This document shows positions 44,336-51,900 of a stretch of DNA of 64,000 bases, in pieces (the stretch's first letter is position 1; the number at the start of each line of letters is the position of its first letter). The translations under genes were made by a program, and so were the position numbers. The DNA is taken from NCBI RefSeq assembly GCF_052425735.1, contig NC_135767.1, forward strand, positions 19,220,001 through 19,284,000. Direction: 5' to 3'. The DNA is from Oculina patagonica. Lineage: Eukaryota. Below the pieces are notes generated by a model. That model searched no databases, had not been told where the DNA came from, and worked only from the letters and a program-made list of their open reading frames with translations.

Positions 44336-45734
44336 GTCTCGCCCAGGGAGCTTTTGTTTATGTTTGTTGCATTGAGCTAATCACTACGTATTGCCCAACG
44401 AGGGCCATTTGTGGGGCAGGGCCGTGCAGATGGCTTTTCCATTCTTTTCACCTGAGCACGATTTCCGTATAATTGACGCGGTTCGCGGGAAAAATTATAG
44501 ACAATGTATGGAAAAATTGAAAACGTAACTGAACGCTTTCTAGCCCAGCTGCATCCTTCATATTCGGCGAATAAAAACCTCTGCCTTATTTTTTAACTTT
44601 ACAACCCAGAAGTTGCCCAGAATTCGTTTTTTGTAAAAGATATTTGCCGTCGGATTCTCATACAAACACTGTAATTTCTACCCGCTTTGCCCATCGTCAA
44701 GATGGCGTCGAAAGCCGTAATAAGGCCTATTCTCTTGATCCTCTTGTTGCTCTCGATCTCGGTCCTTTGTTAGTTCCTTGTTCACTTTCCTGACAGCGTT
44801 CTTGTAATTTTTAAAAATAAAAGAAACCGCGTTTTATATAACTTTAAGTGTCAATGGTGTCCAGCCGAGGGAATGGAGTTGAATTATTAGGCTTTCAGAA
44901 CAGCCAAGAAACACAGGTGCAGACAATTAACTAGGTGAAACGAAATTGCCTCTGTTTTAGGCTGCCAGATTAGTTGACGCAGTTGTTTCAAAATAGACAA
45001 ACTGATAGGTCACCTTTGGCCAATTCACAGCAAACATGAATGTTGGGATAATAAATTTCTTACTTCCAATTTCCAACATAAATAGAACATGTTCTTTGCT
45101 CCTGAAACTCAGGATCAGATTTTGGATGCATTTTAACGCCATCCGAGGGTTCACCTAGAACTGTCCCATAAAAGTGTGAGATTCTCTTTGCCTCTCAAAC
45201 TTAATCATGAACCAAAATACCGGCTTTGCTTGTTGGCTTCAATTTGAAAACAAAGAATTATTAGCAATTTGCCAAATTCAAAACGTTTTGCATAGAAATT
45301 GTCTTATTTAATGTAGCAGTGTTTTAGTAGATAGAAAATTTGCAATTTGGAGTGAACTGTTCGTTAAATATCGCAACCTTTTTTTGTTCACCGCCTTTTC
45401 ACTGGCCAATCATTTGTATGACCCGAAAAACGACTTCACCTATAGGAAGAAAACCTTTAATTTTGGACAATCTTCCAGGTGGTCTATAGTTTAATTAAAG
45501 GTTGCCTTTTAGGCCTGAAACATAGCAAATAGCTAATAGTTTATCATTGGTCTCTTTTGTGCAGTGTCATCGAGGGCTGTCAATAATCGGTGAAAGCAGT
45601 CCAAATATAATCTCTCAAACTTGTTTGACTCCATTTCCAGAAGTCTAAATAAACAGAGCGGCCGCGTTTGCTTCTTAAGAAACGGAGCAAAAAACAGCCT
45701 GAGAAATACCTCGATAACGAAACTTTGCTATCTA

Positions 45735-46712: not shown

Positions 46713-48653
46713 TCTCTCCATGGGTAATCAGGCCAAGGCGTGTTCGTAAAAACAGTCCACTATCAAGTCACACTTCCAAGAGACAATTGTGATCGAGGAA
46801 TGGATTTTCAGTTGCTTCCAGCGGACAATCAAACCAAAAACGCAAAATATGATTGTGTACTGACCCTGTATAAATGATGACAAATTGAATGTGTACGAAG
46901 TAGAGAACGGAGCCCTTTCCGTTTCGGTTAACCCAACTATATTTACAGGTAACGAGGTCTCAGTTGACCTAGATTTGTAAAAAAAATATTCAGTGAAAAC
47001 TGCTTTGTATTTGATTCAATGTACACTTGTATGAAACTTTGCACAACCGGGTTTAACCGTTCTTGGGACACTAACTTTATATTATCATGTTGTAGTTATT
47101 TATAAAGTTTCAGTCGACCTGAAACTTTTTATTTATATTTATTTCCAAAGTTAAGTGCGTATGTCATTTTATGTAGAATTGAGAAACTCTAGATCCCTAG
47201 AGAAATGGGGTAGGGGGCGAGTTTTATGGTCATTGTTTGCTTAGGCTTTTTTCGTTTCTCGTTCGACTATGTTTTTCAGGTAAACGTGCTTCTTCTTATT
47301 CTGCTAGTATTTGCACTCGCATAAGAAACCTCGCACAACTATTGTGTTGTAAACTGCAAATAAGAGGACATCATGTGAAAGGACAACAGGTCCATTTTAT
47401 GTATGTAAATCTAGCAAACACTTTTATCCACTTATTAATTGCAACTATCTCCGGATTCTACTGGTTTTATGTGTCACCTGTTCAAATCGCTATTTGTTGA
47501 ATACAATGTTGGCAAGACAAGCGTGTCTTAATCAAAACTAATAACTGATGATATAAAGTCCTTTCTGTTATCCAACATGTTGTAACATAAGTGCCGTATC
47601 CTAGGCCATCCATGTTTTGGGCGAGCTGGAATTAAGGTTACTAAGCTTAAACCAATTCCACATAACGTTAATTGCATAAAACAATATGCTTTCCACTGAC
47701 GATTTTAATGGGTTTTGAACTGTAGGAAATGGAGTTAAGTTAATACGCTATCAGAAAACGAGAAACACAGGTGCAGAAAATTGACGAGGCGGAAAGAATT
47801 GCCTTTGTTTTAACCTGCCAAATTATTTGACGCTTTTTTCAAAATAAACAAATAGCTTGGTCACTTTTTAGCAATTCACTGCAATAGACCAGTGTGTGAG
47901 AGGAGAAGTAATCAGCTGAAACGGGAATGTTCCAATAGTTTCTTACTTGCAATTTCCAACATAAATAGAACATGTTATTTGCTCTAAAACTCAGGATCAA
48001 ATTTTGGATGCATTTTCACGCCATCTGAGGGTTCACCTAGAACTCTCCTATAAAAGTGTGAGACCCTCTTGGCCTCTCAAAGTCAACCATAAGCCAAAAT
48101 AGCGGCTTTGCTAACAAGCAATTTGTCAAATCTAAAACGGTTTTATTAGAAATGCTCTAATTTGATGTAGCGATGTTTTAGAAGATAGAAAATAGTCTGC
48201 ATTTTGGAGTGGACTGTTCTTTAAATGTTGCAACTTTTTTGGAGCTTTGAAGAACGGTGTATAACTTTCCTTGAGATCACTGGCTGGCTTTACGTGGTCT
48301 TGAAGTTTTTTTAAACTGCACCTATAAAAAAAGTACAAAAATAAATTGATTTTAAGTGTGAATGGTGTTCAGCCGAGGGGATGGAGTTGAATTATTAAGC
48401 TTTAAGAAGAGCCAAAAACCACAGGTGCAGAAAATTAACTATTAAAGCGGGAAGAAATGGCTTTGTTTCAGCATCCCAAATTATTTCACGCTTTTTTCAA
48501 AATAGACAAATAGCTTGGTCACTTTTTAGCAATTCACTGCAATAGACCAGCGTGCGAGAGGAGCAGTAATCAGCTGAAACATGAATGTTCAAGTAATTTC
48601 TTACTTCCAATTTGCAACATAAATAAAACATGTTATTTGCTCCTAAAACTCAG

Positions 48654-48816
48654 CGCCAGCAGGCAGTGCCTGCGGCATTAGTATTGTTGTATGCGCGCGC
48701 ATGTTTTCGCGCCACATGTTCGGTATGTGCAATATGTCAGCCATCTTGGTTGCATTAAAAACTGCTGTTGAAGTTCTTTCGTTGTGACGTGCGTTCTTGT
48801 CTCTTAAACATTGGCG
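48654..48816 (+). repeat. 5' LTR
   Basis: CGCCAGC...ATTGGCG. Contains ATTAAA. Identical by eye to the 3' LTR. Confidence 0.93.
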
Positions 48817-48827
48817 TGGTGGCAGCG
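48817..48827 (+). other. Primer-binding site (tRNA-Leu type)
   Basis: TGGTGGCAGCG immediately follows the 5' LTR and is complementary to the ...CGCUGCCA-CCA 3' end of animal tRNA-Leu(AAG/UAG). Confidence 0.7.
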
Positions 48828-48979
48828 ACGATTAATCCACGTCCTCAAGAGCCTGAGTGTCGTCTCGCTGGTCCAAGCAACAACGAGTCTACCTATCCTA
48901 TGGTCGAGTGAACTCTGAACAGCCGTCTCATCGTAAGGAAAGTATAACTTCACTGTTCCTTACTGTTACTGTGTTAAAC

Positions 48980-51900
48980 ATGCATTCAAATAGAGCCCCG
49001 AAACAGTGGTCCCTAACAAAGAATGAAAGTATCACATCATTTGAAGCCTGGCGCCAGAATCTTCAGTATTCCCTGTCTTTAGACGCTAATTTCGCCCCGT
49101 TTTTAGCAGACAATTTTACATGGCAGAAAAAGTCGTCCACTGCCCCCAATAGAGGGCTCACTACCGATGGGGAAGACGTCAATTTAACTCGCCGACGTAC
49201 CGCCGCACAGAAGAACGTACACCTTGAACTCATGTTAGGTCAGATAGCAAATTTTTGCCCCGTTATTTCACGCAATACCATTGTGAAGAATACCACTTCA
49301 GTCAAGTCCATTTGGCAAGCAATAAGGTCCCACTTTGGCTTTCAGTCCACGGGTGCTCATTTTCTAGATTTCTCTAACATTAAACTCGAAGTTGATGAAC
49401 GCCCTGAAGACTTGTTTCAACGGTTAATGTCCTTCACTGAAGATAATTTGCTTGTTGCAAATGGCAACATAACCCACCATAGGGAAGTCATTACTGTTGA
49501 TGAGGAACTGTCACCCACACTTGAGAATTTCGTGGTTTTAACCTGGCTAAGACTCATTCATAACGATCTACCTGCCCTTGTCAAGCAGCGCTACGGAACT
49601 GAGTTAAGATCAAGAACACTTGCTTCCTTAAAACCTGAAATCTCGCAGGCGCTAGACTCTCTTCTCGATGAGATTCGCTCCAACGCCGACACCAAAGTTC
49701 TCCGAACCACTGCTTCACGGTTCAGGCAGCCACCTCCTCGCCCCTCCGTTAAGTCTTCTGCACAACCATGGCCTCCGAGGCGACCGAGGTCCTGTCCTTT
49801 ATGTAAACAAGCTGGTCGCAACGACCAGCACTTCTTAAGTGCATGCTCATATTTACCTCCGGAGGACCGTACTTACCTTTCTCGTTCTCGCCTTACCTCT
49901 ACCCTTGACGACGAGGAACCTGACTACTCAGACTATGTGCCCTCAGCCTTCCCCGACGAGGACGACCCCCCTCCACACACTACAGCTCGTACAGTTTCAC
50001 GCCGTGTCAGCACTAAACAGTCACCCCACTTTAAGGCTTTTTACAAACAGCATCCACTCCGACTGACCCTAGACACAGGTGCAGAGACTAGTATGATCAA
50101 GTCATCCGTGGCCCGTTCAATTGGTGCAACCATTGTAAAGTCTTCCCAGCAAGCTTTACAAGCCGACGGCATGACTCCCTTAGCTGTAGCCGGGGAAACT
50201 CACCTCATCTTATCCCGAGCAGACAAACAACTCGGTCTTGACGCCCTCGTTGTTGACGACTTAGACGTAGACGTCCTGGCTGGCACACCCTTCCTTATTG
50301 CTAACGACATCACCGTCCGTCCCGCTTTGTGCCAAGTACGTATTCAGGACTCTGAGGTCATACATTATGACCCCGATAGTGATTCAACTGGCTCTCATGC
50401 TGTGCGACGTGCACAAAGTTACGTCCTACGCGCTTCCTCCTCCGCAACCGTTGTTTGGCCTGGTGAATACTTGGAACTGGACGTCCCTTCCGACCTAGGT
50501 GACGATTGCGTACTAGCACTTCAACCGCGCACAGACACCCCAATATCGAAACACACCAAACCCACCTGCATTTGGCCTGAACCTCAAGTTGTAGAAGCTG
50601 TCGGATCCAAAATCCGCTTAACCAACACTTCCAACGAGCCGAAAGCCATAGGTCGCCACGAGCACCTCAGCGAGATTCTACCCACAGCAGAAACACCGTC
50701 ACCGACCCCCAACCCAGCATCCACCACTAAGTCAATTCCAGTGAAGCCACACAGTCTACCTCCCTTCTCGTCTTCCGTGTCCTTAGACCCCGACAAATTG
50801 CTGCCAGATGAAACCCGTCTCAAGTTTCAACAGCTGCTGCAGTCATACGACAGAGTCTTCAACCCCGACATAGCCGGTTACAATGGTGCTGCTGGTCCCA
50901 TCCAAGCAACTGTGAATATAGGCCCCGTACAGCCTCCACAACGGAAAGGCCGCGTACCTCAGTACTCTCGCAACCAACTGGTAGAACTCCAAGCTAAGTT
51001 TGACGAGCTGGAACAGGCCCAGGTCTTCCGTCGCCCCGAGGATCTGGGCATAACCGTTGAGTATCTTAATCCTTCATTTCTTGTAAAAAAGCCTTCAGGT
51101 GGTCACCGACTCGTGACCGCATTTGCCGACGTAGCACGCTACAGTAAACCGCAGCCATCTCTAATGCCAGACGTCGACACAACCCTGCGCACTATCACAC
51201 CATGGCGCTACATGATCCAAACTGATCTCACCCGAGCATTCTACCAGATACCTCTCTCCCAGTCTTCTCTAAAGTACTGTGGTGTAGCCACCCCCTTCCG
51301 TGGAATCCGTGTATACACAAGATCAGCAATGGGGATGCCTGGCTCCGAGACCGCACTCGAGGAAATGATGTGTCGTGTTCTGGGTGACTTAATTCAAGAA
51401 GGCTGCGTGGCTAAACTCGCAGACGACCTGTACTGTGGCGGCGATACACCCGAAACCCTCTTGACCAACTGGAGACGGGTACTGGAGGCGCTTGATCGTT
51501 GTAACCTCCGTTTGTCCCCTACGAAGACTGTCATCTGTCCAAAGTCTACCACCATCCTTGGCTGGATCTGGTCTCAAGGCCGTCTATCAGCCAGCCCTCA
51601 TCGTATTGCCGTCTTGCAATCATGCCCTCCTCCCCAAAGTGTGAAAGGCCTACGTTCCTTCATTGGAGCCTATAAAGTCCTCAGTCGCGTACTCCCAAAC
51701 TGCTCGGACATAGTGGACCCCCTCGAGAGCACCCTCACGGGCCTCCAGTCTAACGACAAGCTGCTTTGGGATGAGAACCTCACCTTCAGGTTCAAGCGTG
51801 CCCAGGAGTATCTGTCCAAACACAAATCCATAGTCCTACCACGTCCTTCTGACACTCTTTGGATAGTCACCGATGACTCAGTCACCAAGAGAGGCCTTGG

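Follow-up and report, generated by a model that had tools for sequence, protein, structure and literature searches.

Can a reverse transcriptase (RT) that reads LADD in place of YxDD, and AMG in place of PQG or PFG, be a working enzyme, and to what kind of element does it belong? The window analyzed here, a stretch of 64,000 nucleotides from Oculina patagonica, encodes such an RT, and the original prediction held it to be functional, atypical in its active site and possibly different in fidelity or nucleotide-analogue sensitivity. We hold with high confidence that it is the RT of a young Troyka (Kuafuortervirus) element in which K-[L/I/V]-A-D-D and xMG stand family-wide for YxDD and PQG/PFG, and that its synthesis of DNA on RNA likely follows the usual two-metal chemistry.

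Structure of the element

The RT is part of an element of 5638 bp (48654-54291) with CAG flanking each side. Its features, in window positions, are as follows.

48651..48653, unstranded: left copy of the target-site duplication (TSD), 3 bp, CAG, from comparison with paralogous empty sites
48654..48816, plus strand: 5' LTR, 163 bp, ends CGCCA..TGGCG, from alignment of both LTRs and sister copies
48817..48827, plus strand: putative primer-binding site (PBS), TGGTGGCAGCG, able to pair with the CCA-extended 3' terminus of host tRNA-Leu (AAG/TAG), the presumed primer
48980..53920, plus strand: Gag-Pol, one ORF of 1646 aa, from the ORF list and translation
49793..49846, plus strand: Gag zinc finger CX2CX8HX4C, Troyka type, after the pattern in PMC12440569
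50048..50296, plus strand: aspartic protease (LDTG), Pfam PF13975 and PF13650 at E 2e-4, under the curated cut-offs
51143..51565, plus strand: RT palm core, Pfam RVT_1 at E 6.7e-10, also from model and fold searches
51224..51241, plus strand: RT motif A, DLTRAF; D749 is catalytic, and the aromatic residue F754 is the likely steric gate
51323..51346, plus strand: RT motif B, SAMGMPGS, from the sequence and alignments of copies and homologues
51413..51427, plus strand: RT motif C, K-LADD; the catalytic pair D815 and D816 is predicted to lie at the turn of a beta-hairpin
51767..52240, plus strand: RNase H, immediately after the RT with no tether; D965, E1008, D1035 and D1083 present
52574..53600, plus strand: integrase with HHCC finger and D,D(35)E triad (52814, 52985, 53093), no GPY/F; right end approximate
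54112..54125, plus strand: polypurine tract, then TTG and the 3' LTR; probable plus-strand primer
54129..54291, plus strand: 3' LTR, same sequence as the 5' LTR
54292..54294, unstranded: right copy of the TSD, 3 bp, CAG

The two LTRs showed 0 mismatches over 163 bp, as originally claimed, and their termini are CGCCA..TGGCG, not TG..CA. Longer ends, TGCGCCA..TGGCGCA, were suggested by the 3' LTR alone and were excluded by the 5' LTR and 17 sister copies; because these agree on CG..CG, the ends were set there. Empty paralogous spacers in the same window (near 45105, 47986 and 63343) read AAACTCAGGATCA, with CAG once only. The ORF, described earlier as uninterrupted, runs from the ATG at 48980 to the stop at 53920 with zero internal stops. 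The Gag finger letters, CPLCKQAGRNDQHFLSAC, fit CX2CX8-10HX4C, and Pfam domains follow along the ORF in the order protease, RT, RNase H, then integrase zinc finger, whereas neither the Gag region nor the core of the integrase gave a Pfam match. The Gag-Pol ORF is free of GPY and GPF strings throughout, and an ORF search found no env frame in the element.

Around the element (38105-59650) lie at least five GPCR ORFs of the rhodopsin family, clustered in tandem and inverted arrangement, and the insertion occupies one of the spacers between them; two of these ORFs were scanned and matched 7tm_1 at E 1e-44 or better. Elsewhere in the window, 18-bp repeat arrays at 587-964 and 2113-2436 lie in opposite orientation, 1.2-1.3 kb apart, and possibly bound an element of the foldback type; at 16551-19558 and 10203-10739 are TRIM-NHL-like exons (RING plus NHL) and an exon of cytochrome b561.

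Register of the RT motifs

The three motifs on which the original prediction rested are real: QTDLTRAFYQI, RSAMGMPGSE and AKLADDLYCGG share one frame in the Gag-Pol translation, with D749 at 51224, SAMG at 51323-51334 and LADD at 51416-51427 (codons CTC GCA GAC GAC). Checked against solved RTs, SAMG aligned with MPFG in Ty3 and with LPQG in foamy virus, and KLADD with VYLDD and YVDD. All three catalytic Asp (D749, D815 and D816) are present and the motif-B proline is absent. Alignment to HIV-1 RT Q151M chains was weak (E 0.04) and serves for register only; it set SAMG against LPMG and KLADD against QYMDD, which makes Leu813, Ala814, Ala783 and Met784 the equivalents of Tyr183, Met184, Pro150 and Gln151. 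The Lys/Arg directly before motif C (51413-51415) falls at the position of MMLV Q221, and yeast TERT KLADD has a Lys before the motif too. Modelling of the structure, proposed earlier, gave a predicted RT (mean pLDDT 86.7) with L-A-D-D at the beta-hairpin turn, and a fold search with it matched MMLV, Ty3, CaMV and HIV-1 RT, the best being MMLV and Ty3 (against Ty3, Z 17.9 with an rmsd of 4.5 across 234 residues).

Fixation of LADD and AMG in copies and relatives

Alignment of homologous RTs had been proposed as a check on whether LADD is fixed, with sister copies carrying YADD or FADD as the contrary outcome. A search of the animal's own genome, in which 150 of 561 candidates were scored, gave 139 matches, 19 of them (window copy included) at 98-100% identity. 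Across the top 30 loci, KLADDL was read in all 19 near-identical copies, KIADDL in all 11 others and AMG in 29. IADD was also present at 18 of 18 loci of other subfamilies, which are partly the same places as the top 30. No aromatic residue was seen in other copies or in close homologues, and the contrary outcome did not occur.

Database homologues agreed. Motif C among the best 120 of 935 hits read LADD in 90, IADD in 28 (118 of the 120 together), LAND in 1 and ISDD in 1, and all 120 carried AMG. More distant relatives were sampled through cluster representatives, of which the best 150 reached as low as 43% identity. The 119 that cover motif C read IADD (49), LADD (26), VADD (13) or something else (31, many of these degenerate fragments), with Tyr in none and Phe in one at the aromatic position. 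Motif B was AMG in 96, VMG in 13 and CMG in 5 of the 137 representatives covering it, with Pro in 1, and the D and F/Y of motif A were retained in 130 of the 137 covering that motif. In near-full-length representatives, K/R stood directly before motif C in 49/51 and Ala at X in 48/51, and K812, A814, M784, P787 and G788 were each retained in 46 to 50 of 51.

The closest named RT homologue was from Acropora millepora (91%), which points to a stony coral as the likely host. Contigs from four public runs (three studies) showed no variant letter across 50507-51875, RT core included; none of these contigs joined across the insertion site, on which they are uninformative. A look for expression found no RNA run listed as containing the sequence.

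Active-site chemistry and fidelity

In the mechanism that we propose, D749, D815 and D816 would bind two metals, and F754 would be the steric gate that excludes ribonucleotides, like HIV-1 Tyr115, which is given that role in the available part of PMC2850067. Leu813 would sit where HIV-1 Tyr183 makes its hydrophobic fit but would bring no hydroxyl, the arrangement also found in telomerases (LVDD, LTDD and LADD); the accessible text of PMC1851649 has Tyr183 provide hydrophobic packing against the primer end. Replacement of the motif-C Tyr by Ala or Ser nearly abolishes the activity of MMLV RT, and changes at Q190 lower it 10-40-fold (PMC8640165, available part), losses which show that the residue matters in a retroviral setting and call for some compensation in a Troyka RT. 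Loss of the hydroxyl would likely be absorbed by the co-fixed neighbors K812, A814, M784, P787 and G788.

The fidelity of the Troyka RT is likely within the ordinary range of LTR elements. Pairwise divergence of 18 aligned copies averaged 6.8/kb (range 1.7-13.2), and young YxDD Gypsy pairs of the same genome differed by 4.0 and 7.4/kb (two pairs) or by 17-19/kb (three pairs, from a third family). These controls came from a second set, with LTR pairs resolved at 18 of 20 loci (some ends partly); in a first set, two of three families were themselves non-aromatic and the third did not have its LTRs resolved. Private substitutions amounted to about 12 per copy (221 in 94,410 sites), and private variants of the LTRs were found in both LTRs 14 times and in one LTR 5 times, so that most arose before insertion. 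Because the number of cycles is not known and the control families overlap, no mutation rate can be derived. As a rough and weak test, copy divergence shows no excess mutation load and speaks against a grossly error-prone enzyme.

The alternative that survives best keeps the same family and proposes that K-LADD/AMG gives clearly different kinetics: the Km for dNTPs would be lower, fidelity would be changed, or dideoxy-type analogues would be taken up less. We consider this possible but on balance doubtful. The near-constant K/R before the motif and Ala at X are in keeping with it, and K812/A814 resemble the MMLV pair Q221R and V223A/M, which directed evolution at low dNTP selected and each of which lowers Km(dNTP); Q221R alone reduces fidelity five-fold, and the second change of the pair partly restores it (PMC8640165, in the portion available). 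The corresponding human telomerase change, L866Y, altered neither fidelity nor processivity, however, although the next residue did affect fidelity (available part of PMC1851649). M784 lies at the place of HIV-1 Q151, and the Q151M complex reduces incorporation of several nucleoside analogues (PMC2850067, available part), yet Met at this motif-B position is common in hepadnaviruses and Penelope-like elements (PLEs), as seen in the accessible part of the PMC11673190 alignment, and also occurs in one Gypsy family of this genome. The divergence values of the 18 copies, moreover, overlap with those measured for young Gypsy pairs of the YxDD type, a weak comparison of few pairs over an unspecified number of cycles. 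A literature search on Y183F found nothing.

Assignment to Troyka

Troyka LTR retrotransposons are said to have been reported by Kapitonov and Jurka in 2008. Their marks, according to Kojima 2025 (PMC12440569), are CGCCA..TGGCG ends, a 3-bp TSD and a CX2CX8-10HX4C finger, together with a single Gag-Pol and no tether, GPY/F or env; LTRs measure 100-400 bp and interiors 1553-7691 bp, and the elements are common in corals. Kuafuorterviruses (Gong and Han 2024, PMC11673190) are 5-6 kb long, have the order PR-RT-RH-IN and carry IADD, VADD or LADD where YXDD is expected. Kuafuorterviruses and Troyka are one group under two names, and LADD is already a published trait of it. The earlier description of the active site as atypical accordingly stands against retroviruses but not within this group, where the motif is the published norm (PMC11673190). 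AMG is visible in the available part of the alignment in that paper, whose main text makes no remark on it, and the main text of PMC12440569 does not discuss RT motifs, primer tRNA or target preference.

The element in the window has CG..CG ends, a 3-bp TSD, the finger, a single Gag-Pol with PR-RT-RH-IN, no GPF/Y, and LADD. In a tree of 28 RT cores, the window RT, four sister-subfamily loci and 14 database relatives parted at 100/100 support from the RTs of nine other LTR elements in the genome; since no named Troyka or Gypsy reference was included, the tree supports Troyka membership without being proof alone.

An unusual RT in an otherwise ordinary member of Ty3/Gypsy (Metaviridae) is a highly improbable reading. 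The PR-RT-RH-IN order agrees with that reading, but it is common to Ty3/Gypsy, Troyka and BEL and so is not diagnostic, and the best solved match is Ty3 RT. Gypsy families with IADD, ISDD, IMDD or SIDD do occur in the same genome; their ends, however, are TG..CA, their TSDs measure 5 bp, and the 100/100 branch separates them from the window RT. The CG..CG ends, 3-bp TSDs and Troyka-type finger of our element stand against it as well, and the TG..CA ends with a 4-6-bp TSD that characterize Metaviridae are absent.

The Gypsy-type sample comprised nine families at 40 loci and was biased, having been chosen by likeness to the window RT; the elements in it had TG..CA ends and 4-5-bp TSDs. Motif C was non-aromatic in five of the nine families, as IMDD, IADD (two families, one from a single copy), SIDD and ISDD (L073-L080, L088-L092, L097, L098-L102 and L103-L106), and two of the five also lacked the motif-B proline (SFG and LFG). 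We take these non-aromatic families to be possibly Mag-type. In a Gypsy-like family (L081-L087), YWDD, with Trp at X, was read at 7/7 loci, and LTRs did not resolve within 10 kb. The original prediction called the motif-C aromatic residue near-invariant, which is right for RTs of retroviruses and of most Gypsy elements but too broad for RTs generally, given the telomerases and the five of nine Gypsy families in this sample.

The Troyka assignment has a practical side. LADD with AMG in an LTR element of a marine animal points to Troyka, an element easily classed as Gypsy, or overlooked, because of its CG..CG ends.

Age, selection and likely activity

Of the 19 near-identical copies fetched, one ends in N and 18 were readable at both ends; all 18 had CGCCA..TGGCG ends and a 3-bp TSD. 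Their LTR pairs were identical in 12 and differed by one base in 6, and the full-length frame was intact in 13 of the 19 copies and missing in 6. Among loci of other subfamilies, an LTR pair was resolved at 11 of 18, with a 3-bp TSD in 10 of those 11.

Between subfamilies, pN was 0.13-0.23 and pS 0.74-0.87, with synonymous sites saturated; in two distant pairs where dS was estimable, dN/dS was about 0.045. Selection appeared weaker in close pairs, with dN/dS about 1 (L020/L026) and 0.3 (L020/L023). Within the young family, omega was 0.15 for changes shared by several copies and 0.45 for private ones, the pattern expected if copies that replicate further are filtered for function.

Every copy found has the aliphatic motif, so it was almost certainly present as well in the RT responsible for these insertions. 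Young copies together with purifying selection indicate that the family RT very likely works, a view that comes from population genetics. The earlier proposal of a functional RT, rather than decay, gains support in the same way, from LADD in all 19 copies, its hold in distant relatives and purifying selection on the RT. No biochemical assay of any Troyka RT was found in the literature searched (mostly non-subscription papers), the available part of the meeting report PMC12859917 included.

We reject as barely credible the idea of a dead copy, mobilized in trans, whose motifs reflect decay or private mutation: the window copy does have 13 private substitutions, and identical LTRs date its insertion without proving that its enzyme worked, but fixation in copies and homologues, with no aromatic residue in any copy or close homologue, an aliphatic residue held through different codons (CTC, ATC and ATA) while synonymous sites are saturated, the selection on the RT and the invariant public contigs all speak against it. 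One private substitution of the window copy (51869-51880) lies beside the first RNase H catalytic Asp and is missing from all 29 other loci and all 120 homologues. With 13 such changes, one of them at this place, the window copy's own enzyme may be impaired, even if the family RT works.

Proposed replication cycle and target-site choice

The general cycle of LTR retrotransposons suggests how the element would replicate. An LTR-driven transcript would yield one Gag-Pol, and minus-strand synthesis would start at the PBS from host tRNA-Leu. RNase H would spare the purine tract at 54112-54125, which would prime the plus strand, and integrase would insert the CG-3' ends at a cut staggered by 3 bp, with a preference for C-[A/T]-G.

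The PBS has an 11-base match to host tRNA-Leu(AAG/TAG) genes, which in three copies (L031, L036 and L048) is lengthened to 14 bases (48817-48830), as re-copying of the PBS from the tRNA would predict. The same PBS was found in other subfamilies. TSDs were tallied for the window (48651-48653) and for L031-L048 and L055-L072. In the 28 TSDs, the middle base was A/T in 27, the first C in 18 and the last G in 20 (binomial p 1e-5, 4e-7 and 5e-9, respectively, against the window's flanking composition), and the 10 TSDs from other subfamilies show the bias independently, more weakly. Neither the tRNA-Leu primer nor the C-[A/T]-G bias appears in the main texts of PMC12440569 and PMC11673190, and the word "preference" is absent from the former. 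The bias offers a small handle on integrase site choice.

Comparison with known systems

In ends, 3-bp TSD, finger, single Gag-Pol and lack of tether, GPY/F and env, the element matches Troyka as described in the main text of PMC12440569, against which no differing feature was found, and its 163-bp LTR and 5312-bp interior both lie inside the Troyka ranges. With Kuafuorterviruses it shares LADD, the 5-6 kb size and the PR-RT-RH-IN order (PMC11673190). A Kuafuortervirus of Pachyseris speciosa, seen in the available part of the supplementary alignment of that paper, has an RT about 80% identical by eye to the window RT, with SAMGMPGSE and KLADDL. The same alignment, as far as available, has AMG in hepadnavirus TFHBV and in Penelope-like RTs.

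Among solved structures, Ty3 RT (4OL8) is the closest and has the same tetherless RT-RNase H layout, but it carries MPFG and YLDD and is about 21% identical.

Telomerases have an hhDD motif C, which is LVDD in human, LTDD in ciliates and LADD in yeast (available part of PMC1851649). Yeast TERT reads LFQG and KLADD in the accessible part of the PMC11673190 alignment, and so is without both the motif-C aromatic residue and the motif-B proline. Leu thus replaces the aromatic residue in telomerase and in the window RT alike, and yeast Est2 also shares the K before the motif. The fold match to telomerase RT is nevertheless distant (Z 7.7-10.5, compared with 17.9 for Ty3 RT), and telomerase is a cellular gene without LTRs, protease, RNase H or integrase, whereas the window RT lies within an LTR-flanked Gag-Pol. 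The likeness in motif C is most likely convergent.

A bolder view, which we offer tentatively and think less probable than an enzyme of ordinary properties, is that the Troyka RT is a natural alternative active site, in which co-fixed K-[LIV]-A-D-D and xMGxPGS converge on telomerase and mirror MMLV Q221R + V223A, with a low Km, distinct fidelity and built-in resistance to chain terminators, alongside an integrase targeting C-[A/T]-G. With its many young intact copies, the family allows tests of what the aromatic residue of motif C does in LTR-type RTs, and telomerase provides the precedent for a working hhDD active site.
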